A stretch of DNA of 64,000 nucleotides from Thermoplasmata archaeon UBA61 (GTDB lineage: Archaea > Thermoplasmatota > Thermoplasmata > Lutacidiplasmatales > UBA184), in the NCBI GenBank assembly GCA_002503985.1, contig DASW01000007.1, forward strand, positions 108,435 through 172,434, written 5' to 3'. The position numbers were made by a program, and so were the translations under genes. Below are positions 25,112-52,072 of the stretch, in pieces. The notes beneath the pieces are model-generated. The model was not told the origin of the DNA and did no database searches. It saw nothing but the letters and a program-made list of their open reading frames with translations. Each line of letters begins with the position of its first letter. The stretch's first letter is position 1.

Positions 25112-25585
25112 ATGACCTCGACCCCTTCCGAACGGCTTCGCGAGCTCGGACTCGTGCTTCCCCCGCCTCCGCGGCCCGCGGGCACCTACTCCCCGGTCGT
25201 CCTCGACGAGGAGCGGGCCTGGGTCTCAGGGCAAATCGTGACCGAGGCGGGAAGTGTCGTGCACCCCGGGCTCGTGGACCGGGACGTGCCCATAGAGGTC
25301 GCTCGAGACCTCGCTCGCCGCGCCGCGCTTCAGGCGTTGAGCGCGCTGGCGGCCGAGCTGGGGTCGATCGACCATGTTCGACGTTTCCTTCGGGTCACGG
25401 TCTATGTGGCCTCATCACCGGGGTTCGCTCGGCAGCATGAGGTGGCGAACGGGGCGACCGACCTCCTGGTCCAGGTGTTCGGCGAGGCCGGGCGGCCGGC
25501 GCGCGCGGCGGTCGGCGTCGCCGGCCTCCCGCTCAACGCGCCGGTCGAAGTCGAGTTCCTGGTCGGGACGGTACCGCTCCGGTGA
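25112..25585 (+). CDS. RidA/YjgF-family protein
   Basis: Sequence matches the RidA/YjgF family; ~157 aa. Confidence 0.85.
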   Translation: MTSTPSERLRELGLVLPPPPRPAGTYSPVVLDEERAWVSGQIVTEAGSVVHPGLVDRDVPIEVARDLARRAALQALSALAAELGSIDHVRRFLRVTVYVASSPGFARQHEVANGATDLLVQVFGEAGRPARAAVGVAGLPLNAPVEVEFLVGTVPLR

Positions 25586-26241
25586 AGCCCGCCCCCTGGG
25601 AGAGGGTCTACCGGGAGGGACGAGACCTCTACACGGTCAATCGAAACCCCGGAACGAAAGTCTACGGGGAGGCGCTCTCGACGGTCGATGGGGTCGAGTA
25701 TCGGGCCTGGGACCCGTTCCGCTCGAAGCTCGCGGCCTTTCTGCTGAAGGGGGCTCCCGCGGACGTCCTCGGCCGGCCCCCCCGGACCGTCCTCTACCTC
25801 GGAGCGGCCCACGGAACGACCGTGAGCCATCTCTCCGACCTCTGGCCCGAGGCCACCCTCTTTGCGATCGAGAAGAGCCCGACCTCGTTCGCCCGGCTCC
25901 TCGCGCTCGCTCGGCAGCGACCCGGGCTCGTCCCGATCCTGGCCGACGCCCAACTGCCCGAGCGCTACCAGGCGGACGTCGGGGCGGTCGAGCTGCTCTA
26001 TCAGGACATCGCTCAGCGGAACCAGGCCGGGATCTTTGTCGAGAACGCCAGAGCCTGCCTCTCTCCCCGCGGTCGCGGGATCCTGATGCTCAAGGTCCGG
26101 TCGGTCACCCAGCAACGCCCGACGGCGACCGTCGTTCGGGAGGCGCGGTCCGCGCTATCGGCGGCCCGTCTCGCCGTCGCCTACGAGACGGCCCTCACCC
26201 CGTTCTCGCGCGAGCACGCCGCCCTGGCGGTAGTAGCCTAG
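25582..26241 (+). CDS. flpA: fibrillarin-like 2'-O-methyltransferase
   Basis: LYLGAAHGTTVSHLSD matches the fibrillarin SAM motif. GTG start overlapping the RidA stop (GTGA). Confidence 0.7.
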   Translation: MKPAPWERVYREGRDLYTVNRNPGTKVYGEALSTVDGVEYRAWDPFRSKLAAFLLKGAPADVLGRPPRTVLYLGAAHGTTVSHLSDLWPEATLFAIEKSPTSFARLLALARQRPGLVPILADAQLPERYQADVGAVELLYQDIAQRNQAGIFVENARACLSPRGRGILMLKVRSVTQQRPTATVVREARSALSAARLAVAYETALTPFSREHAALAVVA

Positions 26242-26320
26242 CGACGACGCACCTTTCACCCACCGCCGGGGGCTGGCGCGCGAAATAGCAGGCCCCCCAT
26301 CCTCGACCCCGGGTGGTCGC

Positions 26321-28573
26321 GTGACGGAGGTCCGCACCGAAGGGGCGTCCCGCCTCCTTCCAATCGCGGTGGACTCGATCCTCCTCGTGGGACTGCTCGT
26401 CACGACCCTCGGGCATTCGGGAGCCCCCGTATCCTCGGAACTCCTCGCGAACACCCTCTCCCATCCCTCCAACGACGCTTCGGCGGTCGACCTCGCCATC
26501 GACCCGCCATCCTACGAGATGCGCACCGGCTCCAACCTCACCGTCCAGGCCGTCTGGTCGGCCGGAACTCCTCTCTGCCGCGTAACGGCCCTTTGGTACC
26601 GCTGGTCGGTTGACAACGGGAGCGCGACGGGGTTCCTGAACGCCAGCATCGGACCGTCCGCGACGTTCACCGCGGAATCGTTCGGTTCGGGAACGGTGCC
26701 CGTGTCCGTCCGGTCGGGAGCCGTGCTCGACTGCAGCGGGAACGAGACGGTTGTCGGACGGTCGAACCGAACGAGCATCTCGATCGTCGTTCCCCTCTCG
26801 TTGTCGGGGGTCGATGTCGGACCGAACCCCATGGCACCCGGGAACACGGCCGTCCTCGAAGGTACGGTCACCGGAGGTGAACTTCCGTACACCGTGGAGG
26901 TTACCTGGGGCGACGGCGCCCATTCTACGGTCGCCGTTCCTGCATCGGGCCCCTTCTCGGTCGGCCACCCGTTCTCGGCAGGGGAATTTGTCCCCTTCGT
27001 GGTCGCGAACGACGTCGGTGGCAGTTTCGTCAACGTCTCGGTCGCGGAGGCCCTCTCCGTTGGGACCGGCCTCGAGGTGGCCATTACCCCGGCCAGCTAC
27101 GTGGCGGTGGTTGGGGTCCCGGCCGAGTTCACCGGGGTTGCCGAGAGCAAACCGGCCGGGGCGGTGACGCTGTTCGATTGCTCGAACGCTACTGTCGGTC
27201 CGGACCCCACTTCCCCGGCGTCTCCCAACGCGACCCCGTTCTCCTGCACGTTCATCGCACCGGGGACCCAGGAGGTCCTCTTCGGCGCGTACCCTCCCCA
27301 ACCCGGAGGGACATCGGCGAGCATCGTCCTCTACGAGAACGTCGTGACCGCGCCACAACTATCGGCGACGCCCGTCGAATCGGTGGGGGAGGAGGGCAGC
27401 ACCGCGCTCGTCCAGGTCCACCTCTCCGGTGGTGCCCTACCGATCTCACTAACGTGGAATCTTTCGGGAAACCGGTCGGGGGGCGCCGAGACCGTCGGTT
27501 CTGACGGAAGTGGGGTCCTGAGGGTCCCGCTCGGGGTCGCGGGGGAGTACACGCTCGGGGTCCGGGCGAGCGACGCCCTGGGAGACATGGGAACGAGCGT
27601 GACGGCGACCGTCTGGGTCGACCCCCCGCTCGATGCCAACGTGACCGGCGCCCGTTCTCTCGTTTCCTACGGCGCGGTCGCAGAGGTCGCCGGCGAGGTG
27701 CTCTCTGGCTGTCCGCCGTTCTCCTGGTGGGTCGTCCCTGACCTCGCACCCGCGAACGGGTCGCCCGGGAACGGGACCCTCCCGGACGTCGGAGCGTTCT
27801 CCTGGAACGGGTCGTACGACCAAGAAGGGAACCTTTCGCTTACCGCGGGAGTAGCCGATGGGTGCGGGGCTACCTGGCGGACGGGGCTCGAGGTCCCGCT
27901 CATCCCTATCCTGTCGGCCGAGGTCGCCGTCGCCTCGGGGCCGACCTCGCCCAACGAAACGCTCGCGGTCAACCTGTCGGTTCAGGGCGGACAGTCGCCG
28001 TTCCAACTGTACGTGAACGCGAGCGACAACGAATCCTGGAACCGAACGCTGCCGTCGGACGGGACGTACCGTTGGCTGTTTCCCGCACACGCGAACGGCT
28101 CACTGGAGGTACTGGTTTCGGTGACAGACCGTCTGGGCAAAGACCTCGAGACCCACCTTACGGTCGCCCTGATTGCCCCAGCGGAGCCGACCGTTCCTCC
28201 GCCTCCCCCTTCGACGCTGCCCGGACCATTCGGTAATTCGACCACCACGGCCCCGATGGACCCGACCTGGCTGCTGCTGGCTCTCATTCCGGCGGGTGGC
28301 ATCGCGACGGTCGTGTTCCTACGGGGGCGTCGAGCTCGAAAGACACGCGGCGAAACTCCCGGACCAGACCCCGTAGAGACACTCAAGCGCATTATCGAGC
28401 CGGCCGAAGGCGCGGAGCGATTCACTGTCGAGCTATTGGCAGAGGAAGCGGGGATTCCGCTCGCCGTCGTTCGCTCGACCATCGACCGACTGGTCTCCGA
28501 GGGCGCGATCCGCTCGGAGAGCGGAGCCGACGGGGAGGAGGTGCTTTCGTGGTCATCCGAAGCTGGTCGGTAA
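26321..28573 (+). CDS. large secreted PKD/Ig-like repeat protein with C-terminal TM helix and cytoplasmic wHTH-like tail
   Basis: N-terminal hydrophobic segment. Repeated ~90-aa beta-rich modules with N-x-S/T sequons. TM helix WLLLALIPAGGIATVVFL, then RGRRARK and an HTH-like tail. Confidence 0.7.
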   Translation: MTEVRTEGASRLLPIAVDSILLVGLLVTTLGHSGAPVSSELLANTLSHPSNDASAVDLAIDPPSYEMRTGSNLTVQAVWSAGTPLCRVTALWYRWSVDNGSATGFLNASIGPSATFTAESFGSGTVPVSVRSGAVLDCSGNETVVGRSNRTSISIVVPLSLSGVDVGPNPMAPGNTAVLEGTVTGGELPYTVEVTWGDGAHSTVAVPASGPFSVGHPFSAGEFVPFVVANDVGGSFVNVSVAEALSVGTGLEVAITPASYVAVVGVPAEFTGVAESKPAGAVTLFDCSNATVGPDPTSPASPNATPFSCTFIAPGTQEVLFGAYPPQPGGTSASIVLYENVVTAPQLSATPVESVGEEGSTALVQVHLSGGALPISLTWNLSGNRSGGAETVGSDGSGVLRVPLGVAGEYTLGVRASDALGDMGTSVTATVWVDPPLDANVTGARSLVSYGAVAEVAGEVLSGCPPFSWWVVPDLAPANGSPGNGTLPDVGAFSWNGSYDQEGNLSLTAGVADGCGATWRTGLEVPLIPILSAEVAVASGPTSPNETLAVNLSVQGGQSPFQLYVNASDNESWNRTLPSDGTYRWLFPAHANGSLEVLVSVTDRLGKDLETHLTVALIAPAEPTVPPPPPSTLPGPFGNSTTTAPMDPTWLLLALIPAGGIATVVFLRGRRARKTRGETPGPDPVETLKRIIEPAEGAERFTVELLAEEAGIPLAVVRSTIDRLVSEGAIRSESGADGEEVLSWSSEAGR

Positions 28574-28956
28574 CTCATCTAGGAACGGGCGCCTCCCGAA
28601 GGACTCGGACGATTGCATTCCTTCTCATCGCCCTGGCGACCGTACCCGTACCGGCAGGCCATTCCTCCCCACCTCCCGTACTCGGTCTCCGGACCTTCGG
28701 AACAGCCCCTTCGACCCCCGTGAGCAACTTCTCAGCTTCGATCAATCGTCTGGTCGACTTGGTGGCTCTCGCGGGGAGCGGGATCCTATCGCTCGTCTGG
28801 GCTCGCGTCGCATTAAGCTGGTTCTCCAATGACATTACCAAGAAGATCCAAGCGAAGGACCGCGCCCGGGACGCCTTGATTGGAACCTTGTTGTTCATGG
28901 CGGCGGTCACCGGACTCCTCTACGGGCTCGCCCACTGGGTTCTCACGGGCAGTTAG
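28549..28956 (+). CDS. small membrane protein (signal peptide + 2 TM; pilin/VirB2-like architecture)
   Basis: RRTRTIAFLLIALATVPVPAG looks like a signal sequence; a second TM lies near the C-terminus. Overlaps the upstream gene's end. Confidence 0.5.
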   Translation: MVIRSWSVTHLGTGASRRTRTIAFLLIALATVPVPAGHSSPPPVLGLRTFGTAPSTPVSNFSASINRLVDLVALAGSGILSLVWARVALSWFSNDITKKIQAKDRARDALIGTLLFMAAVTGLLYGLAHWVLTGS

Positions 28957-28966
28957 GAGGGACAGG

Positions 28967-30100
28967 GTGCCGATCCCCTCCGTGGACCTGGGCGACCTTG
29001 TCCGGACCCTTCTGTTCCTGCTCTTCGCCGGACTCACGGCCATCATCACGGCGGTCATCGGGCCGACGTACGACAACCTCCTCGTTCCCGAGCTCCAGCC
29101 CAGTGCCCTCTTCCCTCCCCTCCTGGGCTCGGGAAGTGGCGGCGTGAACTACCTATCCACGGGGGCGCGGTTCTCAGGGTACGTCCTCACAAACGTGGTC
29201 GACCCGGCGGTCACGCTGGTCGCGCTCGGCGTCGCTGTTCTCTACCTGTCCCGGTCGGTCGTCTCGCGGTGGGCAGACGCACTGGATGGGCTCCTCCCCC
29301 GGCTCATCATCGGCGTCGTCGGAGCGAACTTCACGGTGCCGATCGCCGGCGCAATCATCGGCGTTGCGGGAGGTCTCTACCCCATCATCTCCGGCTGGGA
29401 TGGTGGTGCCTGGCAGCACTGGGTGAACTTGGCCGGTTGGGGACAGGTCCCGTTCTCCTGGGACAATGGAGCGCTCGCATTCGTGCTTTCCCTGGTCGAG
29501 TTCGCCGCAGTCTTCGTCCTGGTCCTCGCGGTTGGGATACGGGATGCCGTTCTGGCCGTCCTGCTCGTGCTGTTACCGATATTCACGCTATTGTGGCCCC
29601 TTCACCCCCTCTCCCCCCTCGCCCGAAGAGGGTGGCTGCTGTTTGGCGAGCTCGCGTTCCTACCTTGCGTTCTCGTCGTTCCTCTCGAACTCGCTGTCGG
29701 GAGCCCGAATCCCGTCATGCTGGTTGCCTATCTCGCCGTGGCCGTTGCCTCCCCGTTCTTTCTCTCGCTGGCCGGCACCTCCCTCGTTTCCTTCGGATTC
29801 GGTGGTGCATCGGGGGTTGTCCAATCGAACGCGCAGCGCGGTCTCCAGGTCGCACCGTCTGCCGCTGCCTCCTCGTTCGCGCCGGCGGCCAACGGAATAC
29901 GAACCAGCAGTCCCGCGGGGGGAGCGTTCGCCGGAGTTACCCGAGTCGCCGGATCGGCGGCAGCTCCGGCGGCGGCCCCGCTCGTGGTCGGTGAGCTGAT
30001 CGGTCACGGCGCGTGGCAACTGTTGCGACACGTCGGACCATCCCACGGAAAGAACGGCCCCTCGGCCCAGCCGCCGATGCTCAAGGGAGGGGCGAAATGA
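28967..30100 (+). CDS. polytopic membrane protein (VirB6/TrbL-like architecture)
   Basis: GTG at 28967 preceded by AGGAGGG. At least 7 predicted TM helices. Ala/Ser-rich C-terminal tail. Confidence 0.6.
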   Translation: MPIPSVDLGDLVRTLLFLLFAGLTAIITAVIGPTYDNLLVPELQPSALFPPLLGSGSGGVNYLSTGARFSGYVLTNVVDPAVTLVALGVAVLYLSRSVVSRWADALDGLLPRLIIGVVGANFTVPIAGAIIGVAGGLYPIISGWDGGAWQHWVNLAGWGQVPFSWDNGALAFVLSLVEFAAVFVLVLAVGIRDAVLAVLLVLLPIFTLLWPLHPLSPLARRGWLLFGELAFLPCVLVVPLELAVGSPNPVMLVAYLAVAVASPFFLSLAGTSLVSFGFGGASGVVQSNAQRGLQVAPSAAASSFAPAANGIRTSSPAGGAFAGVTRVAGSAAAPAAAPLVVGELIGHGAWQLLRHVGPSHGKNGPSAQPPMLKGGAK

Positions 30101-30101
30101 G

Positions 30102-30884
30102 ATGGGCGAGCGCGAGGGCGGTCCCCTCATCATCGGGCTTCCCGAACGATTGGACCGCCGAATGCGACTCGGTCCGTTCCCGTCTTCGCGCGACGCGCTC
30201 AAGTTCCTCACGTACGCCGCGACGGGGGCGTTGTTGTCCCCCTTCGCGAGCCCCCTCGTATGGCTCCCGGTGGTGCTGGCGGGGTTTGTCATCTCGGCCT
30301 GGCGCCCGGACGGCCGTGCCTTTGACGAAAGGATGCTCACGTTCGTCACTTGGAAGGTGCGTACGGCGGGCCCGAGGAGTGCCGTGAAAAGCGCCGGGTC
30401 CCGGCCCCTCGTCCGCCAGGGGCTACTCCAGCTCGAGTCCCATCGCTACGTGGCCGTCGTTCGCACGGGCGGCATGCCCATGGCGTACCTGCCACCCGAC
30501 GAGCTCGCCCGGCGCTTTGAACTCTATCGTGAACTCCTACGCTCGACGGACACCAGCTTCTCGTTCCTCGTCACAACAACTCCGATTCGCTCCCAAGCCG
30601 TTCGACCGGGAATCCCCTCGGGAGGCGGTCAGCAGGCCCAGGCGCGCTCGGGGTACTCCGAACTCGTGACCCTGCTTTGCCGGCGCCGGTTCCTCCGGCG
30701 AGTGTACTTCGTCCTCGGCACATTCGAGGTCGACACGGATGCCATCGGGCGTCTGGAGGGGAGGGTCGCAAACCTCGTCGAGCGACTCGGCTCCCTCGGG
30801 CTCCGACCGGTTCGGCTTCGAGACCGATCCCTGGCCGAGGCTGCACACCGGTTCGGCTGGCCCACGGAGGGGCTAGGGGCATGA
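30102..30884 (+). CDS. hypothetical protein with N-terminal TM hairpin (possible split VirB3/VirB4 N-domain)
   Basis: ATG 1 nt after the upstream stop. TM helices LKFLTYAATGALL...VVLAGFVISAW, then a soluble domain. Confidence 0.5.
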   Translation: MGEREGGPLIIGLPERLDRRMRLGPFPSSRDALKFLTYAATGALLSPFASPLVWLPVVLAGFVISAWRPDGRAFDERMLTFVTWKVRTAGPRSAVKSAGSRPLVRQGLLQLESHRYVAVVRTGGMPMAYLPPDELARRFELYRELLRSTDTSFSFLVTTTPIRSQAVRPGIPSGGGQQAQARSGYSELVTLLCRRRFLRRVYFVLGTFEVDTDAIGRLEGRVANLVERLGSLGLRPVRLRDRSLAEAAHRFGWPTEGLGA

Positions 30885-31255
30885 CCGGCGGAACAGGTGC
30901 CGGCCCCGTATTCGAATTCGAAGCGTTCGGCGCCGCCGTTGGATTGGCCGTCGTCTGCGGGGGGTTGTCGATAGTGTTCCCGCTCCTCATCGCGCCGACG
31001 GCCACGCTCGCCGCTCTCGCGTTGGCGGGATGGGTCTCGCGGGCCCGACGACGGGGTTCGCTCACCCGAAAGGGTCCGGGCACTGGGCCGGCGATCGCGC
31101 TCAGCGTTCTGGGGGCCGCTGCGATCTTGTTCCTCATTGCTCCCCCATCCCTCGCCGCCTTTCGTGGCCTCCTCCTTGCGGGGGGTCTCGTCCCGCTCTT
31201 CGCGACCGAGCGAACTTCGTCTCCGCTTCGCTCCCCGGTGTTCTCCCGTTCATGA
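30881..31255 (+). CDS. small membrane protein (3 TM)
   Basis: ATGA overlap at both ends. Hydrophobic throughout. Confidence 0.5.
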   Translation: MTGGTGAGPVFEFEAFGAAVGLAVVCGGLSIVFPLLIAPTATLAALALAGWVSRARRRGSLTRKGPGTGPAIALSVLGAAAILFLIAPPSLAAFRGLLLAGGLVPLFATERTSSPLRSPVFSRS

Positions 31256-32946
31256 CCCGATCCCTCCCTTCGAACGCGCCCGCCGAAGCGCCGACCTTTT
31301 GGCGGGTCGGCCGAAGCTACCGCGCACCGCTCCTGATTCGAAGTTTCCCCCCGGAAGTTCCCTTCGGGTTCCTTAGCCGCATTCTTCCGACCAATGAGAC
31401 GCTCGAGCTCTCGGTAGAGGCCCACCAGATCCCGTCTTCGAACGCGCTCGAGCTCCTGCATGGGGCGAGGGCCGTCGCCGAGGCGGAGCTCGCCACCGGT
31501 GGCAACGGAGGGCAGACGGCCGAGCTCGAGGTCGAACGTGCGAGTGCCGAGGAGCTGGGCCGCGCGGTCGCTCGGCGGACTCAGGAGCTCTGGAAGGTCG
31601 GAATACGCTTCGTGGTCCTAGCTCCGACCCGGCCGCACGTCGAGGCGAGGAGGATGCGCCTATCCGAGCGGCTCTCCGCCATCGGGTTTCGGTCACGTGT
31701 TCCTCGGTACGAGGTCCGCGAGGCGCTCCTCCCGCCGGACCTGTCCGCGTCCGAGCCACGGCCCTCGGGTTACTGGCACACCTTGCCGACCGATGGGCTC
31801 GCCTCGCTCTTCCCGTTCGGAGACGAGACGCTCTTGGAGCCGGGAGGGGTCCTCCTGGGTCTCGCGCTTTCCGACGCGAGCCCGGTATTCGTTGACCGGT
31901 GGTCCCACGCGAGCTACTCCTGGGGTATCTTTGGTACGACGGGGTCGGGCAAGTCGTTCGCGGCGGCGCTGACTCTGCTGAGGACTCGGTGGCTACGACC
32001 CGACACGTCCATCGCCATATTGGATCCTCTAGGGGAGTACTCGACCTTGGTCAAGGCTCTCGGAGGCTCGGTCATCCGTGTCGCGGACGGGGTTGGGGGG
32101 AGACTGAACCCGCTCGACCCGGTGACTACCCGGGGCGACCGACGGGAGAAGGCCGCCCGGGTCGGAACGATGCTTCGGGCCCTCTTCCCGAGCCTTCGAG
32201 ACGAGGAGGCGGCCGAGCTGGACGCGGCCGTGACCCAACTCTACGAGCGAGGACCAGACGTGCCGACCTTGCGAGACCTTCGGGACCGAGTGGTCGAGCG
32301 GGGCGGAGCGGGAACCCGCCTCGCGACCCTGCTTGAGGTGTTCCGGTCGGGTTCGCTGCGGGCGTTGGATGGACCGACGACCGCTCGCCCAACCGAAATG
32401 GTCGTATCGGTCGACTTCCAAGGAGTGCCCGATGACCAACTGCCGTTCCACCTCACGTACGTCCTCGATTGGGCGTACGGGCGGATGGCCGGGCTCACGG
32501 GCGGCAAGCTGCTCCTCATCGACGAGGCGCACCTTCTCGCGCGCCACGCGATGACCGAAGAGTTCCTGGACCGGGTCGTGCGTCACGTGCGACACTTCGA
32601 GGCAGGGCTACTGGTCCTTTCTCAAAGTCCGGAAGATTTTCTCGTCCGTCCGGCCGGAAGGTCTCTCCTCAGGAACTTGTACGCGACCGCGTTCCTACGC
32701 CTCCCGGAGGTGTCGGCCGAAGCGCGGACGTTCTTTGAACTCACGGACGCGGAGGGCGATTGGCTGCCGCGGGCGCGTCTCCCGAAGGAGACCGGGTACT
32801 CCGAATCGCTCTGGAGAGTGGGGGAATTACACCTGCCGCTCGCGATCGTAGCGTCGACCCCCGAGTACGAGTTCCTCGAAGCCAGCCTGGGTCGACCCAG
32901 GACGACTCCGGACGCCCCCGATGCCGCTCCAAAGGGAGGTTTATAG
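31252..32946 (+). CDS. VirB4/TrbE/CagE-like secretion/conjugation ATPase
   Basis: Walker A GIFGTTGSGKS and Walker B KLLLIDEAHLL. ~564 aa. Start overlaps the upstream stop (ATGA). Confidence 0.8.
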   Translation: MTRSLPSNAPAEAPTFWRVGRSYRAPLLIRSFPPEVPFGFLSRILPTNETLELSVEAHQIPSSNALELLHGARAVAEAELATGGNGGQTAELEVERASAEELGRAVARRTQELWKVGIRFVVLAPTRPHVEARRMRLSERLSAIGFRSRVPRYEVREALLPPDLSASEPRPSGYWHTLPTDGLASLFPFGDETLLEPGGVLLGLALSDASPVFVDRWSHASYSWGIFGTTGSGKSFAAALTLLRTRWLRPDTSIAILDPLGEYSTLVKALGGSVIRVADGVGGRLNPLDPVTTRGDRREKAARVGTMLRALFPSLRDEEAAELDAAVTQLYERGPDVPTLRDLRDRVVERGGAGTRLATLLEVFRSGSLRALDGPTTARPTEMVVSVDFQGVPDDQLPFHLTYVLDWAYGRMAGLTGGKLLLIDEAHLLARHAMTEEFLDRVVRHVRHFEAGLLVLSQSPEDFLVRPAGRSLLRNLYATAFLRLPEVSAEARTFFELTDAEGDWLPRARLPKETGYSESLWRVGELHLPLAIVASTPEYEFLEASLGRPRTTPDAPDAAPKGGL

Positions 32947-33379: not shown

Positions 33380-34258
33380 TCAAGCTCGCCGTGGACGAGG
33401 AGATCGCACACCGCGCCCAACCCGCGCCTTCATCCCCTTCGGGCCCCGCGCCCGAGCGGAAAGCGTGAACCCGCGCGCCAGCGCACTCGCCTCGAGGGCA
33501 CCGTAGGCGCCTCGGTCCCATTCCACGCCGATCGCGTCACGACCCCAGCGGCTCGCCGCCCAGAGCGTGGTGCCGGTCCCGGCGAACGGGTCGAGCACCG
33601 TGTCGCCCTCGACCGAGAACATCCGCACCAGCCGTTCGGCGAGCTCGGGCGGGAACGCGGCGCTCCTCCCCCGGGGCGAATCCTGGCGAGCGCCCCGGAT
33701 ATCGGTCCAGACCTGGCTGAACCAGCGGTCTCGCTCTTCGCGCGAGAACCGGCTGGCGAGCCGAGCGGCGTCGTGGGTCGGGAAACGCCGGAGCTTTCCC
33801 TTGCGGAAGAGGAGAACGTACTCGCAGTCGAGGGTCACGTAGGCGTTCGGTGGCAAGAACCCCGAGCCGAGGAACGCGTTGGGGCGGTTGGTAGGCTTCT
33901 TCCAGAGGATGTACGGGAGCGGAACCAAGCCGAGGCGAGTCGCCGACACGAACGTCTCGGCCGGGTTCGGCCAGAGGCGAAACTCCCCGTCCGCCGAGCG
34001 GAGCGCATCGCCGATGTTGACCGCGAGGATGCCGCCGGGGACGAGAACGCGTTGGCATTCGGCCCAGGCGTCGGCGAGCACCCGGAGCATCCCTGGGTAG
34101 TCGGTCGCTCCCAGGGCACGGAACAGTCCGTCCCACTGGGGGATCATGGGGTACGGAGGCGACGTGACGACCAGATGGACCGTTCCGCTCGCGATGCCGT
34201 TCAGCTTGCGCGCGTCGCCATGGATGAGCCGAACGGACCCCAGGGGTGGGCGCCGCAC
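33380..34258 (-). CDS. DNA methyltransferase (N6-adenine/N4-cytosine, beta-class; SPPY then DPFAGTGTT)
   Basis: Motif IV TSPPY and motif I VLDPFAGTGTT. Start is uncertain: GTG at 34258 is used here; the first ATG at 34489 would overlap the next gene by 180 nt. Confidence 0.7.
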   Translation of the reverse strand: MRRPPLGSVRLIHGDARKLNGIASGTVHLVVTSPPYPMIPQWDGLFRALGATDYPGMLRVLADAWAECQRVLVPGGILAVNIGDALRSADGEFRLWPNPAETFVSATRLGLVPLPYILWKKPTNRPNAFLGSGFLPPNAYVTLDCEYVLLFRKGKLRRFPTHDAARLASRFSREERDRWFSQVWTDIRGARQDSPRGRSAAFPPELAERLVRMFSVEGDTVLDPFAGTGTTLWAASRWGRDAIGVEWDRGAYGALEASALARGFTLSARARGPKGMKARVGRGVRSPRPRRA

Positions 34259-34309
34259 GCCGGGCCGAAGCCCTGGCACGGTTAATATCGCCCGCCCTCT
34301 CGGTAGGAC

Positions 34310-35614
34310 ATGCGGCTCGACCGACCGGTCCTCCAGGTCGCGCTCGACTTCGAGAACCTCTCCCGCGCCCTGCTCGCGGCACGCGAGGCGGTCGAAGGGG
34401 GAGCGGACTGGGTGGAGGCCGGGACCCCGCTCATCAAGAGCGAGGGGTTGGACGCGGTCCGCGAACTGAAGAAGGCATTCCCGGACCACCTGATCGTAGC
34501 CGACCTGAAGGTGATGGATACCGGGGCCTTCGAGGTCGAGATCGCTGCCAAGGCGGGGGCCGACATCGTCACGGTCCTAGGCGCCGCGGACGACGACACC
34601 ATCGCGGACGCGGTCCGGGGTGGAGAACTTTACGGAGCCGAGGTGATGGTCGACCTGCTCGGCGTCGCGGACCCGGTGGCTCGTACGAAGCGGGTCGCCG
34701 AGCTCGGCGCGGCGGCCGTCTGCTGGCACGTGGGGATCGACATGCAGATGACGGGGAAGACCCCGTTCGCCGTGCTCGCAGAGCTCGCGAAGGCATCCCC
34801 GATCCCGGTTGCGGTCGCCGGCGGTCTCACGAGCGAGAGCGTCGTGGAGGCGGTCCGCGCCGGCGCTCAGATCCTCATCGTCGGAGGAGCGATCACGAAG
34901 AGCCCCAAGATCGTCGAGGCGACCCAACGCATCGACGAGGCGATCCGGACCCAGAAGGCGGTCGCGAGTGAGCATTTCCGTCGCTACCGCAGCGAGGACC
35001 TCCGGGAGGCCTTTCTGAAAGTGTCCAGCCCGAACGTGACGGACGCGATGATGCGACAGGGGGCGATGCACGGCCTCCTCCCGCACCTCAAGGGCCCATC
35101 GGTTCGCGTGGTCGGGACCGCCGTGACCGTCGTTACCCGCGACGGGGACTGGGCGAAGCCGGTCGAAGCGATCGACCGAGCCGGGCCCGGTGACGTCATC
35201 GTGGTCGACGCCGGAGGCGGGACGACCGCGGTCTGGGGGGAGCTGGCCAGCTGGTCAGCGCACGGCCGTCACGTCGCAGGTGTCGTCGTCGACGGGGCCA
35301 TCCGGGACCTTGACACGATTCTCGAGATGGGATTCCCCGCGTTCAGCCGGTCGGTGAGCCCTAATGCTGGGGAGCCGAAGGGTCACGGCGAGATCGGGGT
35401 CGAGGTGACGGTCGGCGGCCAGCGGGTCCGCCCCGGCGACTGGATCGTGGGAGATGTGAGCGGGGTCGTGGTCGTCCCGCGCGAGCGGGCGCAGGAGATC
35501 GCGAACCGGGCCCTGGACGTGCTCGAGCATGAGAACCGTGTCCGGGAGGAAATCCAGCGCGGCTCCACCCTAGGCGCGGTGCAGAAGCTCGAGCGCTGGG
35601 AACGGGTCGGGTAG
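34310..35614 (+). CDS. fusion of HPS/OMP-decarboxylase-like (3-hexulose-6-phosphate synthase family) and RraA-like domains
   Basis: The N-terminal half is a HumpS-like TIM barrel (VALDFENL...VEAGTPLIK). The C-terminal half is an RraA/MenG-like fold. Confidence 0.75.
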   Translation: MRLDRPVLQVALDFENLSRALLAAREAVEGGADWVEAGTPLIKSEGLDAVRELKKAFPDHLIVADLKVMDTGAFEVEIAAKAGADIVTVLGAADDDTIADAVRGGELYGAEVMVDLLGVADPVARTKRVAELGAAAVCWHVGIDMQMTGKTPFAVLAELAKASPIPVAVAGGLTSESVVEAVRAGAQILIVGGAITKSPKIVEATQRIDEAIRTQKAVASEHFRRYRSEDLREAFLKVSSPNVTDAMMRQGAMHGLLPHLKGPSVRVVGTAVTVVTRDGDWAKPVEAIDRAGPGDVIVVDAGGGTTAVWGELASWSAHGRHVAGVVVDGAIRDLDTILEMGFPAFSRSVSPNAGEPKGHGEIGVEVTVGGQRVRPGDWIVGDVSGVVVVPRERAQEIANRALDVLEHENRVREEIQRGSTLGAVQKLERWERVG

Positions 35615-41489: not shown

Positions 41490-41864
41490 GTGCCCTACAA
41501 GGATCCTGCTAAGCGACGTGCGTACAACCTGGCCTATCGGCGAGAGTACTATCGGAGTCACAAGGTCGAATACCTCGCCAAGAACCGGGTTCGGAAGAGG
41601 GCGGCCCGACAATTCCTCTCAGGTGTGAAGCGACGCAATCCTTGCGCCCGATGCGGAGAATCCGACTTGCGATGCCTCGACTTTCATCATCGAGGTGGTC
41701 ATGAGAAACTCGCAGGGTTGTCTATCATGGCAACGGACGGGGCTGCGATTGCCTCCCTGGAAAGGGAACTGCGCAAATGTATCGTCCTTTGCAAGAACTG
41801 CCACGCGAAGGAACACTTCAAAGGGACCGGCGATTCAGGGAAACGGCCGGGGACGCTCCCGTAG
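41490..41864 (+). CDS. free-standing HNH endonuclease
   Basis: Motifs CARCG...DFHH...CKNCH. GTG start. The 3' end overlaps the tRNA 5' end by ~10 nt. Confidence 0.75.
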   Translation: MPYKDPAKRRAYNLAYRREYYRSHKVEYLAKNRVRKRAARQFLSGVKRRNPCARCGESDLRCLDFHHRGGHEKLAGLSIMATDGAAIASLERELRKCIVLCKNCHAKEHFKGTGDSGKRPGTLP

Positions 41865-41954
41865 TCTAGTCCGGTCAAGGATAGAGGGCCTTCGAGGCGC
41901 CCCATGGGGCGTCGAGGAAACCCTCCAACGCGGGTTCGAATCCCGCCGGGAGCA
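41855..41954 (+). tRNA. intron-containing tRNA, probably tRNA-Glu(UUC); ~25-nt intron at about 41895-41919
   Basis: 7-bp acceptor stem GCTCCCG/CGGGAGC. D-loop AGTCCGGTCAA. T-arm GCGGG-TTCGAAT-CCCGC. Discriminator A. Anticodon stem GAGGG/CCCTC is interrupted by a 25-nt insert that folds as a relaxed bulge-helix-bulge. The spliced loop would be CCTTCGA. Confidence 0.6.
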
Positions 41955-41997: not shown

Positions 41998-43302
41998 GTG
42001 CCTCGGTCTCCGATGGGCGGTATCGAGATCCGCGAGTTCCTTTCCCTTCCGAGCCTCAGGGCTTGGTATGAGAACGTAGCTCGAGGGTCACGGATCACGG
42101 CCGACGTCTACTCTCGTTCCCTACGCCTATTCTGTCACCTGACAGAGAAGGACCCATCCTCGCTGCTTCGACTTGCGGAGCCACAGCTCCATTCAATCCT
42201 GCTCGAGTTCGTGACCGCCGAGGAGAAACGGAAGCAGGCGGGCAGCTCGACGGCGACCCACCTCAAGGCGGTGAAGTCGTGGCTCGCGTTCAACGGTATC
42301 CGCATCACCCGACCCGTCAAGGTCCGTCGCGTGCAGGAGACGCCGACACTCGCGGAAGAGCGTACCCCCACCCAAGACGAGCTGCGCCGAGTGTTGCTCG
42401 CAGCGACCGCTCGAAACCGAGTATCCTGCGCGATGATGGCCTTCTCGGGCGTTCGTCCAGAAGTCCTCGGGAGTTACCTCGGCGATGACGGTCTCCGCGT
42501 CAAGGACCTCCCGGAGTTGCGGATCCGCGGCTCCGAGGTGCGTTTTGAGCGAACCCCGGCGACGGTGGTGGTCCGCTCCACTCTCTCCAAAGCCGGACAC
42601 CGATACTTCACGTTCCTGGGGGAAGAGGGGTGCGGGTACGTCGCCGAGTACCTCCGCTCGAGAGTCAAGGAGGGAGAGACCCTCGGTCCCGAGTCCGACA
42701 TCGTTCACGCTGAGGCCGGCCACAGCACCCTGCGTGGAGGAAACACGTTCATCCGGACAACCAACGTCGGGGATGGAATCCGTCTCGCCCTACGGAAGGG
42801 GGGTTTCCCGTGGCGTCCGTACGTGCTTCGTGCCTACTTCGATACCCAGTTGCTGCTTGCCGAGTCGAAGGGCAAGGTCGCCCACGACTACCGAGTGTTC
42901 TGGATGGGGCACAAGGGATCGATGGAGGCCCGGTACACGACCAACAAAGGACGCCTCCCGCAGAATCTCGTCGACGACATGCGCGATGCATACTGTCGGT
43001 GCGAACCGTTCCTGTCGACAGTCCCCTCACGAAACGAGCAAGATGCCCAAGCAAAGATGGCGAAGACCATGTTGATGGGCCTTGGCTACACGGAGGCAGA
43101 GCTCGCCGCGATTGACTTCGAGAATCTGGACGTCACGTTATTCCAAGACCTCGTCACGAAGAAGATGGTCTCCTCAGGTGCGGGTGCAAAGCAGCAGCTC
43201 GTAGACGCGGGCGATCTTCCCCGCTACCTCGAACAGGGCTGGACTGTCGTCACCGCGGTCAATGGACACCAAGTCGTGCTGAATCCACCGGCGTCACGAT
43301 AA
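41998..43302 (+). CDS. tyrosine recombinase/integrase (phage integrase family)
   Basis: C-terminal catalytic region with R...HxxR (HDYR)...Y. 434 aa. Lies immediately 3' of the tRNA. Confidence 0.85.
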   Translation: MPRSPMGGIEIREFLSLPSLRAWYENVARGSRITADVYSRSLRLFCHLTEKDPSSLLRLAEPQLHSILLEFVTAEEKRKQAGSSTATHLKAVKSWLAFNGIRITRPVKVRRVQETPTLAEERTPTQDELRRVLLAATARNRVSCAMMAFSGVRPEVLGSYLGDDGLRVKDLPELRIRGSEVRFERTPATVVVRSTLSKAGHRYFTFLGEEGCGYVAEYLRSRVKEGETLGPESDIVHAEAGHSTLRGGNTFIRTTNVGDGIRLALRKGGFPWRPYVLRAYFDTQLLLAESKGKVAHDYRVFWMGHKGSMEARYTTNKGRLPQNLVDDMRDAYCRCEPFLSTVPSRNEQDAQAKMAKTMLMGLGYTEAELAAIDFENLDVTLFQDLVTKKMVSSGAGAKQQLVDAGDLPRYLEQGWTVVTAVNGHQVVLNPPASR

Positions 43303-47342: not shown

Positions 47343-48218
47343 TCACGCGGGGGCGGTTGCCGCATCCGAAATGAGCAACGCGCTCGCTGCGGCCCGTTCG
47401 AACCCCCGGGACCGCTCCGGGCTCACGCGCGGGCCAACCTCATGCGTAAGGATCTCGGTCGCAACCTGGTAGGCCGACCAGCGGGTGAGGAGCGCGTTGT
47501 GCGAGGCAGCTGCCTCCGCCCGCGCACCAATCGTGGTTGCGTAGACGCGGGGGAGCCCCGCCGCGATGAGCAAGGGTGTCACGTCCTCCGCGAGGACCTC
47601 ATCGCCCATCGCGTCCGCGTAGACCTGCAGCGCGTCCCGGAAGCGGCCCAGGATCGTGTGAATGGCCTTCTGGAGCATCGCCATCAGGTCCGTCTCCGAG
47701 GAGAGGTGGACCTCACGAAGCTCCACTAGGGAGTGCATTCCCGCATAGAGCTGGTTCGCGCAGGCGATCCGCACCCCCGTTCCCTCGGCCCGGACCGCCC
47801 AACTCCCGTCCAGGCTGTTCATCACTCGGACGCCGGGATAGACGGACTCCCCCGGCGCGAGCTCGTACCGGGTCCCGACCACGAGTCGGACCTCCATCCG
47901 ACGTCCTCCCGCGAAGAGGCGGATCTGCTCGCGGGGGAACACGGGGGCGTTCGCGTCCAGGACGGGGCGTTCCAGGGCCTCCCCGATGGCATGGACAGCT
48001 TCCGCGACCTCGCGGTGCTGCACGAGCTGGTAGCGGTCGCTCACGATCGACACGACCTGGGAGGTGTCCTTACGGCGGACGCCCCGGTAGGCCTCGAGGG
48101 GCTCCCCCTGGGGTCCATGTACGGGGACCAGGTCATAGAGGGGAACCTGGTCGGGAGTGACCACGGTCTCGTACGGTCGGCGCAGGTTCTGGCTTTCGGT
48201 CGGGTTCGAGGCTATCAT
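47343..48218 (-). CDS. DUF932-like phage/plasmid-associated protein
   Basis: Motif VMNSLDGSWA resembles the DUF932 signature NSxDGSxA. Confidence 0.55.
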   Translation of the reverse strand: MIASNPTESQNLRRPYETVVTPDQVPLYDLVPVHGPQGEPLEAYRGVRRKDTSQVVSIVSDRYQLVQHREVAEAVHAIGEALERPVLDANAPVFPREQIRLFAGGRRMEVRLVVGTRYELAPGESVYPGVRVMNSLDGSWAVRAEGTGVRIACANQLYAGMHSLVELREVHLSSETDLMAMLQKAIHTILGRFRDALQVYADAMGDEVLAEDVTPLLIAAGLPRVYATTIGARAEAAASHNALLTRWSAYQVATEILTHEVGPRVSPERSRGFERAAASALLISDAATAPA

Positions 48219-49889: not shown

Positions 49890-51374
49890 CTAATGAGCCT
49901 GGCCGGACGCGCCGTCGGGCGGGGGCGTGGTTGGCGAAGGCTTCGCCCGACGCTTGCTCCGCGTCAGGACGACCACCACCACGGCTGCGGCCACGAGCAG
50001 CGCAACGAGTCCCCCGACGATGTAGTACCCCGTCACCCCGGGGAATCCGAAGAGCCCCCGGGATGATCCGCCACCGCACGCGGAGGTTGAAAAGGTCACG
50101 TTCAGCTTGGTCGGGCCGCCCGCAACGGTCACGTTCCCTGAGGAAGGGCACGCGGTGTGGTTCGTTTGGTTGCTGACGGTGAAAGGAAACGTCCCGTTCG
50201 TCTCCGGGAACGTGATCGAAGTGTTGGTGGACGAGAGAGTCGTTCCTCCCACGGTCGCCGACCAGTTCGTCCCGGTAGGGAGGCCGGACTCGTGCACGGT
50301 CAGCCGGAAAATCTGAGGTAGGATGGTGATGTTGTTCGTGTCCAAATCGGCGACATAGACGTTGTGATTGGCCGGGTCATACGCGCTTCCGAAAGGTTCT
50401 TGTTGGACGGCTTGGGTCAAGACAATTCGGTTGGTATCAGGGTCGATGACTGTCACGTTGGACGCGGGCTGACCTCCGATATGGTACCTGTCGGTTACAT
50501 AGACGTAGCCATTGTACGGATCGTAGAGGGCGGACCCACATCCAGTGGCGATTGGGATTGTGGCAACTACCTCGTTGGTGGTTCCGTTCACTACACTGAC
50601 GACATTCGAAATGCCGGGCTGGTTCCCGTTCGTGCAAGCGTAAACGTCACCGTTCGAACCGGCGTACGCCACACCAGGGCCACCGCCTGATGGGTAAGCC
50701 TGCCCAACGACCCGATTGATTGTAGTGTTGATTACCGTCATGTTAGAGGGTATGGCATTTCCCTCGTTGGAAACGAACACCTTTCCGTTCGCCGGGTCGT
50801 AAGCGGCCCCATTCGGACCGGCTCCCACCGGAACGACTGCCACGACCGCGTTCCCATGGATCACGGTCACGTTGTCGCTGGTGAGGTCGGTCACGTAGAT
50901 GTCGCCGTTCGCGGGGTCAAAGACCTGTACGTGGGGGGCGCAACCGGTTGGGCACCCGTAAGCAAGGAGAGGGATGGTCCATTGGACCTGATTGGTCGAT
51001 GAGTTGATGGCGTAGACTCTGTAGACAGTCTCAGCGACGTAGACCATTCCGGTCGAGGAGTCTACCGCAAGCGTCCCGATTCCGAATGGCATCGGAATCC
51101 ACGCCACGACATGGTTCGTGGAGGTGTTGACCACGCTGATATTGCTCGAGCCGAAATTGGTTACGTAGAGAAGCCCGTTGACCGGATTGTACGCGACGCC
51201 GATTGGGCCGGCTCCGACCGGGAATGTGACATTCGCCGGCACTGCAGAAGCGAGTGCCGACTGGGAATGAGTTGGGCCACTACGGAACTGGCTGACATTC
51301 GCGACGGAGGGTACCAGGACCGCAACGACAACAACGATCGCGAGCACGGTGAGGAGGCGGCGTGGCGGCTCCAC
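49890..51374 (-). CDS. YVTN-family beta-propeller repeat surface protein with C-terminal TM anchor
   Basis: Repeated Y-V-T/A-N/D motifs (LLYVTNFGS, MVYVAE, DIYVTD, KVFVSN, YVYVTD, NVYVAD). C-terminal TM followed by RSKRRAK. Confidence 0.75.
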   Translation of the reverse strand: MEPPRRLLTVLAIVVVVAVLVPSVANVSQFRSGPTHSQSALASAVPANVTFPVGAGPIGVAYNPVNGLLYVTNFGSSNISVVNTSTNHVVAWIPMPFGIGTLAVDSSTGMVYVAETVYRVYAINSSTNQVQWTIPLLAYGCPTGCAPHVQVFDPANGDIYVTDLTSDNVTVIHGNAVVAVVPVGAGPNGAAYDPANGKVFVSNEGNAIPSNMTVINTTINRVVGQAYPSGGGPGVAYAGSNGDVYACTNGNQPGISNVVSVVNGTTNEVVATIPIATGCGSALYDPYNGYVYVTDRYHIGGQPASNVTVIDPDTNRIVLTQAVQQEPFGSAYDPANHNVYVADLDTNNITILPQIFRLTVHESGLPTGTNWSATVGGTTLSSTNTSITFPETNGTFPFTVSNQTNHTACPSSGNVTVAGGPTKLNVTFSTSACGGGSSRGLFGFPGVTGYYIVGGLVALLVAAAVVVVVLTRSKRRAKPSPTTPPPDGASGQAH

Positions 51375-51502: not shown

Positions 51503-52072
51503 TCACGAGGGTGGCTTGCCTCGAATCCGGAGTATAGTCCGTGGCCCACGACCGGATTGAGAGATGGTATGGACCTCCAATCCCGCGCCACGGGCGGATC
51601 CAAGAACCGCGTGAAATGCCTCCTGCGTGAGAGGGTTGTCCAGCGGATAGAGGGTTCGGATTTCGTGTTGCGCGAAGGGGTATGGCTGGCCGTTGGGCAA
51701 GGTGGGAGGCGAGAGCCACAGCGTGAGCTTTGCCTCGGGGTCGTTCCAGCGATAATCCTTGCTCCGACCTTTGGCATAAGCGAGACGAATCCCCGTAGCA
51801 GAAACCTCTAGCCGCACGGCGCCTGGCGAGAACATGAATATGGCTAGGGTGCACAGAAATCCGACCCCTACCAGGATGAGCGACGCCATTCCGATCGAGT
51901 AGAGGTTCGAGAAGAAGCCCGGTGTCGTCGCGATTACGCCAACTGCGATCGCGAGTAGAAGCACGAACCCTGCCGTGAAGATAATTTGGACGGTTCGAGA
52001 CCCCCCACGGTAGTCGTGTAGGGAAGCGACTGAAAGGTCGAAGACTGCGGAGGCGGCTGCTGATTCAGTCAT
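51503..52072 (-). CDS. membrane protein (3-4 TM) coupled to the giant surface protein gene
   Basis: Start overlaps the stop of 52069..58386 (ATGA). Confidence 0.5.
   Translation of the reverse strand: MTESAAASAVFDLSVASLHDYRGGSRTVQIIFTAGFVLLLAIAVGVIATTPGFFSNLYSIGMASLILVGVGFLCTLAIFMFSPGAVRLEVSATGIRLAYAKGRSKDYRWNDPEAKLTLWLSPPTLPNGQPYPFAQHEIRTLYPLDNPLTQEAFHAVLGSARGAGLEVHTISQSGRGPRTILRIRGKPPS

Follow-up and report, generated by a model that had tools for sequence, protein, structure and literature searches.

The window of this study, by which we mean the whole stretch of DNA that was analysed, comprises 64,000 nucleotides of Thermoplasmata archaeon UBA61 (GTDB lineage Archaea; Thermoplasmatota; Thermoplasmata; Lutacidiplasmatales; UBA184; GenBank assembly GCA_002503985.1, contig DASW01000007.1, positions 108,435 to 172,434 of the forward strand). 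It harbors a six-gene module that opens with the gene of a 750-residue surface protein and closes with that of a VirB4-family ATPase (Table 1). The surface protein, which we call Ig-wH, comprises an array of immunoglobulin (Ig)-like domains, a transmembrane (TM) helix and a small C-terminal tail with a predicted winged-helix (wH) fold, and it is the topology, conservation and possible role of this tail that concern us here. A preliminary description had taken Ig-wH for a surface PKD protein at the head of a VirB4 operon, carrying a DNA-binding-like tail behind a single TM helix; the open reading frame (ORF), coordinates and peptides quoted in it were all found as described.

The Ig-wH gene and its protein

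A scan of the GTDB species genomes yielded 14 loci of this type, all in metagenome-assembled genomes (MAGs) of Thermoplasmata and including UBA184, to which four more distant metagenomic loci were added. The gene order, comprising DUF885 (minus strand), RidA, fibrillarin, Ig-wH, p135, p377, p260, p124, VirB4, p165, a methylase (minus strand) and orotidine monophosphate (OMP) decarboxylase, is identical down to 54-68% fibrillarin and 24-27% ectodomain identity, with products of about 130, 378, 250 and 120 aa between Ig-wH and VirB4 across the loci. The Ig-wH gene does open a VirB4 operon, and the same six-gene module recurs in the loci examined. The site is fixed as well, lying between fibrillarin and the orphan methylase/OMP decarboxylase in 20/20 loci, again down to 54-68% fibrillarin identity, and neither an integrase near the operon nor flanking direct repeats were found. 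Given this fixed gene order and the lack of integrase and flanking repeats, we consider the module to be chromosomal, vertically inherited and not recently mobile; the single location shared by all 20 loci led us to reject the idea that the operon came from a mobile element.

Table 1. Features of the locus and of the nearby element (window positions unless a locus is named)
Feature	Coordinates	Strand	Evidence or remarks
Archaeal fibrillarin	25582-26241		directly upstream of the Ig-wH gene
Promoter-like region, fibrillarin to Ig-wH gene	26250-26288	+	CACCTTTCAC ... CCGCCGGGGGCTGGCG ... GAAATAG; alignment of 16 loci
Ig-wH gene (Ig array/TM/winged helix)	26321-28573	+	ORF, 750 aa; GTG start; stop TAA 28571-28573
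N-terminal hydrophobic helix, residues 9-30	26345-26410	+	hydropathy; AF2 helix 9-30; invariant D18/L21
Extracellular all-beta ectodomain, residues 56-617	26486-28171	+	AF2 pLDDT mostly 80-95; Foldseek; sequons
Disordered Pro-rich stalk/linker, residues 618-648	28172-28264	+	pLDDT <50; poorly conserved, variable length
C-terminal TM helix, residues 649-667	28265-28321	+	Kyte-Doolittle 2.1 over 19 residues; AF2 helix 649-675
Basic juxtamembrane stop-transfer RGRRARKTRGE, residues 668-678	28322-28354	+	charge asymmetry across the retrieved set
Cytoplasmic winged-helix domain (predicted), residues 683-744	28367-28552	+	AF2, Foldseek, Pfam; acidic, pI 4.3
p135	28549-28956	+	signal peptide, two-helix hydrophobic hairpin, basic loop KKIQAKDRARD; alignment, hydropathy
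p377	28967-30100	+	polytopic membrane protein, at least 6 TM; hydropathy, alignment
p260	30102-30884	+	N-terminal motif, hydrophobic segment, basic soluble domain ~190 aa, net +13
p124	30881-31255	+	small two-TM protein, basic loop; kept in all operon-retaining loci
VirB4-family ATPase, 564 aa	31252-32946	+	NCBIfam, Pfam, PDB matches
p165, 165 aa	32971-33468		conserved, without family match
Orphan N6/N4 DNA methyltransferase	33380-34489	-	convergent with and overlapping p165
tRNA, 100 nt	41855-41954		probably intron-containing; found by Rfam, missed by ARAGORN
Integrase-like ORF	41998-43302
VirD4/TraG/FtsK-like ATPase, 1047 aa	43676-46819		11 kb from the operon, on an apparently separate integrated element
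DUF932 protein	47343-48218	-
NHL-repeat protein	49890-51374	-
2121-aa ORF	52069-58434	-	without Pfam match; lower-GC stretch (0.60), strong GC skew
Two IS110-family transposases	60183-61277 and 61471-62559	-
Deletion-locus regions	L002 2939-5670; L015 9534-12222; L021/L022 6001-8700

Full-length homologues of Ig-wH (n = 48, 43-100% identity, all ~750 aa) retain the N-terminus MTEVR... in alignment; they come from 'Thermoplasmata archaeon' MAGs, are annotated only as 'hypothetical protein', and no Pfam, NCBIfam or PHROG family was found for the protein. Hydropathy revealed exactly two hydrophobic segments, residues 9-30 and 649-667. A full-length AlphaFold2 (AF2) model, based on a 23-sequence alignment and with a mean pLDDT (predicted local distance difference test) of 79, displayed a helix at 9-30, a disordered stretch at 31-55, an all-beta region at 56-617, a Pro-rich disordered linker at 618-648, a long helix at 649-675 and then a compact alpha/beta domain at 684-744. 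The beta region, with ~six Ig-like domains, 22 N-glycosylation sequons and 6 invariant Cys, was placed by Foldseek with tandem Ig-like arrays (titin I-band, RPTP-sigma, contactin, an archaeal S-layer protein), and the notion of a surface-exposed repeat protein therefore stands, with Ig-like repeats. The 'PKD' label fits only loosely: a PKD-like motif, GGELPYTVEVTWGDG (GGxxPY...WGDG), sits in one repeat, repeat 2, and precomputed PF00801 (PKD) matches occur in some homologues, but these are marked 'faint', the fold is Ig-like, and Pfam returned no PKD match for the window protein, with Big_13 and Ig_3 sub-threshold. The second Ig-like domain (residues 171-236, window 26831-27028) also gave a sub-threshold NCBIfam match (5.7e-10) to PamR, an RbmA-like protein of a Patescibacteria pilus system, which is probably generic fibronectin type III (FnIII)/Ig similarity. 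The ectodomain is the fastest-evolving protein part of the cluster, at 36-75% identity vs. 70-91% for VirB4 at the same loci.

At the C-terminal end, the hydrophobic peptide WLLLALIPAGGIATVVFL (residues 650-667, nt 28268-28321) and the basic stop-transfer precede a tail of 72 residues (679-750) that runs to the stop codon. For topology statistics we used 156 sequences of at least 480 aa, retrieved with the protein or the tail profile, a handful of which are unrelated tandem winged helix-turn-helix (wHTH) proteins. In this set, the C-terminal TM helix was present at a Kyte-Doolittle value above 1.6 in 142 sequences; the median charge was +4.5 in the 14 residues after the helix vs. -1 in the 15 before it; and ectodomains carried ~18 NxS/T sequons and ~6 Cys each vs. 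none of either per tail. These charge, sequon and Cys counts place the tail in the cytoplasm, so that the C-terminal TM helix, the positive-inside stop-transfer and the cytoplasmic tail of the preliminary description are all upheld, with two amendments: the start it gave for the tail feature, 28290, lies within the TM helix and not at the tail start, and 'single TM' holds for the C-terminal end only, the hydrophobic helix at residues 9-30 being present besides. This N-terminal helix could be a signal peptide but is more probably a signal anchor that stays uncleaved. Because D18 (window 26372-26374), in the middle of the helix, is invariant in the close family, though not in distant members, we surmise that the helix is not removed on maturation and anchors the protein in the membrane a second time.

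The fold and conservation of the tail

Modelled by itself from a 22-sequence alignment, the tail was predicted by AF2 with a pLDDT of 89.7 and the topology H1-b1-H2-H3-b2-b3 (H7-15, b21-22, H23-32, H37-50, b53-57 and b63-67 in the numbering of the model), corresponding to H1 684-692, b1 698-699, H2 700-709, H3 714-727 and the wing strands b2 730-734 and b3 740-744; the same fold was seen again in residues 684-744 of the full-length model. The top 50 Foldseek matches of the tail in the PDB were all winged-helix proteins or winged-helix-type domains, including Fur/Zur/Mur, BlaI, MarR, histone H5, the ORC2 WH and the Cdc53 WHB, with a template-modelling score (TMq) of 0.6-0.75 and a probability of ~1, the weak E-value of 7e-3, or about 1e-2, being due to the small size of the domain (65 residues). 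On the tail alone, Pfam returned 12 matches over the same region (E 5e-5 to 0.16), all wHTH-type or winged-helix-containing, with Rrf2 as the best (5e-5), followed by GntR, HTH_24, MarR_2, TrmB and IclR, and with RPA_C among the weak ones. In an exhaustive tail-profile search (1.84 billion representatives, E<1e-3, clusters at 50% identity), the matches from outside the family were tandem HTH_24/MarR_2/TrmB proteins (E 1e-9 to 1e-4), which provides independent sequence-level support for the superfamily assignment. With structure and sequence in agreement, we predict with high confidence that the tail adopts a wHTH fold at the superfamily level, and the structural similarity to wHTH folds that had been proposed is therefore well founded. 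The narrower 'MarR/TrmB-like' membership fails, as evidenced by: 1) every Pfam score lies below its curated cut-off (in bits, Rrf2 23.9 vs. 30, MarR_2 15.5 vs. 27, TrmB 13.9 vs. 25.6, GntR 15.9 vs. 27); 2) there is no dimerisation helix; and 3) only ~65 aa lie between the TM helix and the C-terminus, with an acidic wing tip and no flanking dimerisation or effector domain, which fits none of MarR, TrmB, Rrf2 or GntR.

The tail is the best-conserved segment of Ig-wH, its mean identity to the window protein being 77% in the alignment, compared with 55% for the ectodomain, 39% for the linker and 31% for the TM helix, and the earlier expectation that homologues would conserve the tail is fully met by these figures. 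We also compared the ratio of nonsynonymous to synonymous substitution rates (dN/dS, Nei-Gojobori) between the window protein and its counterparts in 12 operon-carrying loci, pairwise. For the tail, this ratio was 0.05-0.09 in 9/12 loci and 0.24 and 0.34 in loci L003 and L016, respectively, with one pair not computable, while the ectodomain gave 0.26-0.39 and 0.61 for the distant L016. As dS in the tail is saturated as it is elsewhere, the constraint acts on the tail protein and not on overlapping DNA signals. Among 180 aligned tails, W744 is invariant and G697, R700, A707, G711 and G738 are 97-98% conserved.

The exhaustive search found the tail domain in 159 clusters, of which ~150 have this architecture and about eight are the unrelated tandem-wHTH proteins. 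Non-fragment matches are nearly all 500-770 aa long and carry the domain behind a TM helix, at their very C-terminus; distant or shorter members, read by eye, comprise a signal or anchor, fewer Ig repeats, a Pro linker, a TM helix, RRRR and the wH domain. In everything examined, the architecture is confined to uncultured Thermoplasmata, and a six-frame hidden Markov model search found no paralogue of the tail elsewhere in the window.

The tail is also distinctly acidic, with a median isoelectric point (pI) of 4.3 and a net charge of -8, and 98% of the 180 aligned tails are net negative. Acidic residues are found in H2 (LAEEAG, with E704, E708 and E709 90-93% conserved) and at the wing tip (GADGEE, D737-G738-E739-E740). 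Other cytoplasmic proteins of the window are not acidic (fibrillarin +8, methylase +16). Of the expression 'DNA-binding-like', the wHTH fold can be retained, but a pI of ~4.3, a net charge of about -8 and an acidic H2 and wing tip are unlike the electrostatics of DNA-binding wHTH domains.

The VirB4 module, its natural deletions and its surroundings

The start of p135, the first of the five genes downstream of Ig-wH, overlaps the last 25 nt of the Ig-wH gene. The mature 75 residues of p135 are almost invariant at loci where fibrillarins share only 54-68% identity; among them are the loop SWFSNDxxKKxQAKDRARDAL and, within the first hydrophobic helix, an Arg that never varies (R86). Such conservation is extreme for a small secreted or membrane hairpin protein and would be expected of a polymerising pilin; with a hairpin layout resembling that of VirB2-type pilins, p135 is a candidate VirB2/TrbC-like pilin, and p377, from its position and topology, a candidate VirB6/CedA-like channel subunit. 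In p260 an invariant N-terminal motif, RLGPFPSxRDALKFxxYA, stands ahead of the hydrophobic segment in the alignment; it resembles the start of the VirB3/PrgI-like proteins of monoderm type IV secretion systems (T4SSs), although no model matched. A reading of p260 as VirB3 plus a paralogue of the VirB4 N-terminal domain was dropped (hhalign probability 1.5%, BLASTP E 0.096). Because p135, p377 and p260 had no match among PDB sequences (profile searches), Pfam or NCBIfam, the VirB2-, VirB3/8- and VirB6-like labels are ones that we infer.

The ATPase matched the NCBIfam models conju_CD1110 (1.5e-40) and VirB4_CagE (7e-14), both below equivalog cut-offs, the VirB4 structure 4ag5 in the PDB (7e-14) and, above threshold, Pfam DUF87; some NCBI records call its homologues VirB4-family protein. 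The relatives listed in our VirB4 search were all close (at least 67% identity), with clusters of the Thermoplasmatales type beyond its reach, and PHROGs gave nothing relevant besides generic ATPase matches. The CedD model scored only 1.5e-10, far under its cut-off and far weaker than the VirB4 models, and no similarity to Ced membrane proteins was detected in the operon products. Pfam and NCBIfam scans found no coupling protein (VirD4/TraG) in the operon, and no product was recognised as a relaxase.

The genes from p135 to VirB4 are missing from three loci, L002, L015 and L021/L022, the last (protein P0039) being represented by 4 contigs from more than one sample. In L015 and L021/L022 the sequence after the TM helix is replaced and the ORF continues out of frame into the p165 region, so that tail and five genes disappeared jointly. 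L002 lacks the five genes but keeps the tail, which at 46% identity has diverged further than any other in the close set and has a dN of 0.45 vs. 0.49 for the ectodomain, whereas operon-keeping genomes of equal ectodomain divergence show tail identities of 72-87% and a dN of 0.08-0.17. Thus L014, which kept the operon, combines an ectodomain identity of 46% with a tail identity of 85%, and even the much more distant L016 (fibrillarin 68%), also with the operon, has a tail that is 63% identical. The operon-less loci belong to different clades in a crude marker tree, which implies at least two independent losses. This loss pattern, although it comprises few events, is the best evidence on the matter and suggests that constraint on the tail depends on the VirB4 module. 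At all three loci homology resumes within 5 nt of one point (window 32919-32924), a shared right-hand end that is probably the start of the conserved sequence upstream of p165; no convincing direct repeats flank the deleted segment (28.2-33.1 kb), which leaves the recurrent deletions without a repeat-based explanation. Since p165 and the methyltransferase gene both remain where the VirB4 genes are deleted, these two probably do not belong to the apparatus.

The block conserved ahead of the Ig-wH gene, which recurs at the same position in L001-L021, is probably a promoter, as judged from its sequence. Its GAAATAG is a TATA-like element ~35 nt ahead of the GTG start, and CCGCCGGGGGCTGGCG is an imperfect inverted repeat (CGCCGG...CTGGCG) that may be a putative operator. 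The distant L016 keeps the arms of this repeat with an altered spacer, and the three operon-less loci have them in degraded form. L017 and L018, also distant, share the TATA-like box and the upstream block; in L017-L019 the sequence of the inverted repeat is not conserved.

Further downstream, an apparent integrated mobile element occupies window 41855-62559 at a tRNA gene (Table 1), in a window with a guanine-plus-cytosine (GC) content of 65-70%. The proximity of its VirD4/TraG/FtsK-like gene, which is coupling-protein-like, to a chromosomal VirB4 module without such a gene of its own is suggestive.

The role of the tail and comparison with known systems

Whether the tail docks the protein to the apparatus or belongs to a receptor that couples contact to DNA had been left undecided by the preliminary description, and our results fit docking better, by reason of the synteny, the loss or relaxation of the tail upon VirB4 deletion and the gene overlap; the acidic electrostatics and the constraint on the tail favor it as well. 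On the observed fold, topology indicators, conservation, synteny and loss pattern we base the following proposal, in which docking, the partner and any cargo of the apparatus are surmised. Ig-wH would form the surface part of a VirB4-type apparatus (T4SS or Ced/Ted-like) that soil Thermoplasmata encode on the chromosome and inherit vertically. Its six fast-evolving Ig-like domains, held outside the cell on the Pro-rich stalk, would probably serve as a contact, adhesion or envelope-spanning element, and the C-terminal TM helix would carry the small acidic wH domain into the cytoplasm as a protein-protein docking module, fixing the surface array to the membrane/ATPase platform made by the next five genes. 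As its partner, either VirB4 or the basic cytoplasmic domain of p260 would be most plausible; the net charge is +13 for this soluble p260 domain and +6 each for the p124 loop and the p377 C-tail. Such a role would be comparable to that of the bitopic VirB8 and VirB3, the subunits by which bacterial T4SSs join the VirB6 channel and the VirB4 ring; archaea are reported to lack recognisable homologues of both (PMC11868833), so that an unrelated protein could take their role. We give docking of the surface protein to the apparatus by the acidic wH tail even odds, a probability of about 0.5.

Several points weigh against docking. The case for relaxation comes from one tail-retaining lineage, L002, whose contig ends shortly after the locus, so that the operon could sit elsewhere in that genome; the tail could have been deleted along with its neighbours simply because it lies next to them; and p135 and p377 are VirB2-like and VirB6-like only as unproven candidates. 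In addition, R718, T720, R723 and R731, on H3 and at the base of the wing where wHTH domains contact DNA, are 74-91% conserved. These residues speak for a tail that binds nucleic acid, either handling a DNA substrate at the cytoplasmic mouth of a Ced/Ted-like importer or exporter or acting as a membrane-tethered transcription regulator, ToxR-like or, if freed by intramembrane proteolysis, Notch-like, that would link surface contact to operon expression. DNA-binding wHTH regulators have this same fold, transcription factors lead both the sequence and the structure matches, the profile retrieves tandem TrmB/MarR/HTH_24 proteins outside the family, and a basic juxtamembrane stretch adjoins the domain. 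Moreover, archaeal VirB4 systems (Ced, Ted, conjugative plasmids) move DNA (PMC9905601, PMC11868833), and the imperfect inverted repeat lies just upstream of the operon's TATA-like box and is degraded where the operon is lost; yet GC-rich inverted repeats are common at 68% GC, and the more distant loci do not keep this one. The domain itself, with its pI of 4.3 and net charge of -8, places an acidic wing tip and three H2 Glu where wHTHs approach the phosphate backbone, distant members have H3 sequences such as PAAAAEAVDRW that lack polar base-contacting residues, and there is neither a dimerisation element nor a Pfam score above any family cut-off. We therefore regard nucleic-acid binding as rather unlikely.

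The survival of the ectodomain in operon-less genomes is a further point against docking, and it implies that the protein may have a role independent of the apparatus. Ig-wH could be a general surface protein, S-layer-associated or adhesive, whose tail binds another partner (cytoskeletal, division or signalling) and whose synteny with VirB4 involves no coupling. Its intact ORF persists without VirB4 genes (in L002, and tail-less in L015 and L021), the ectodomain looks like the Ig arrays of S-layer and adhesion proteins, the gene has its own conserved promoter region, and winged helices are protein-interaction modules in many systems, Cdc53 WHB and ORC2 WH being among our matches. We nevertheless judge it distinctly improbable, given that the tail is lost or relaxed in 3/3 lineages without the VirB4 genes, that no family member stands outside this gene order in the loci examined, that the gene overlaps p135, and that where the operon is missing the ectodomain has diverged further as well (40-45% in L002 and L015), a sign that the whole gene may be decaying. 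A C-terminal segment without specific function, be it a stop-transfer appendage, a mis-predicted fold or an annotation artefact, might be entertained from the individually weak Foldseek and Pfam E-values, but it is very hard to credit and is effectively refuted by the conservation data: the low tail dN/dS at saturated dS, the invariant W744 and the residues conserved at 97-98% in the alignment, the agreement of two independent AF2 runs on a confident fold, and an ORF that is continuous in ~150 clusters. Beyond docking, the protein might be a transmembrane coupler, its fast-evolving Ig domains sensing contact with another cell, extracellular DNA or a substrate and its wH domain gating the VirB4 ATPase or engaging the DNA substrate. 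We consider this unlikely; if it were true, non-extremophile Thermoplasmata would possess a chromosomally encoded, contact-triggered machine for DNA exchange (or secretion), with a subunit type that has no counterpart in bacterial T4SSs or in Ced/Ted, and which could also serve integrated elements bearing a type IV coupling protein (T4CP), e.g. the one 9 kb downstream.

The wH fold, membrane-tethered winged helices in general and archaeal VirB4 operons are known already. What we did not find described is a protein that joins an Ig array to an acidic cytoplasmic wH domain through a type-I TM helix and opens a conserved six-gene VirB4 module. Little is understood of archaeal T4SS-like machines, and few of their parts are known beyond the VirB4-, VirB6- and VirB2-like ones, and the VirB3/VirB8 linkers are reported missing (PMC11868833, PMC12857230). 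The present analysis defines a conserved, vertically inherited module of this kind in abundant uncultured soil and peat Thermoplasmata and, in this surface Ig array of type-I orientation whose winged helix folds in the cytoplasm, a new subunit type that is a concrete candidate for joining the outside and the inside of such a machine. The VirB4-less lineages amount to a natural experiment in support of coupling between tail and apparatus, and the tail probably adds to the cases in which a winged-helix fold serves for something other than binding DNA.

Among known systems, Ced, Ted and archaeal conjugative plasmids share with the module an operon that combines a VirB4-family ATPase with small hairpin and polytopic membrane proteins, and Ced and Ted are, in addition, chromosomal, vertically inherited and without a relaxase in the operon (PMC9905601, PMC11868833). 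CedB and CedD, however, fall in the HerA clade, whereas the window ATPase scores best with the VirB4 CD1110 family, and we could not demonstrate that p135 and p377 are homologous to CedA1/TedC and CedA. In the main Ced/Ted papers that were searched, no Ig-array/wH protein is described and no winged helix or wHTH turned up in the full text, and the 2014 'dark matter' paper does not describe the architecture. In Thermoplasmatales genomes a chromosomal VirB4 cluster with multipass membrane proteins is already on record (PMC5155288), and the available part of that account makes no mention of an Ig-wH component. PrgB of pCF10 is likewise a large, fast-evolving repeat surface protein encoded with a VirB4-type machine, and adhesins of this type are thought to mediate cell-cell contact (PMC12857230). 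They are, however, sortase-anchored to peptidoglycan (LPxTG) and have no cytoplasmic domain, whereas Ig-wH is membrane-anchored with a folded one.

Like the tail of Ig-wH, the winged helices of ToxR, CadC and TcpP are tethered to the cytoplasmic face of the membrane by one TM helix and joined to an extracytoplasmic domain. These regulators have an N-terminal, basic DNA-binding wHTH of the OmpR type and a C-terminal periplasmic sensor, an orientation opposite to that of Ig-wH, whose tail is C-terminal, acidic and under every wHTH family threshold. The cullin/Cdc53 WHB, the ORC2 WH and the RPA32 C-terminal domain have the same fold and set a precedent for a use other than DNA binding, although they have no specific sequence relationship to the tail and belong to soluble eukaryotic or archaeal proteins of replication or the ubiquitin system. 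VirB8 and VirB3 are comparable as membrane-spanning subunits from a VirB4 operon, with cytoplasmic and extracytoplasmic parts and a proposed tie from ATPase to envelope, but they have no sequence or fold relationship to Ig-wH. In VirB8 the periplasmic domain is NTF2-like, the topology is N-in type II and the cytoplasmic tail is short and unstructured, whereas Ig-wH combines a 560-aa extracellular Ig array and a type I orientation at its C-terminal TM helix with a folded winged helix that is predicted to face the cytoplasm.

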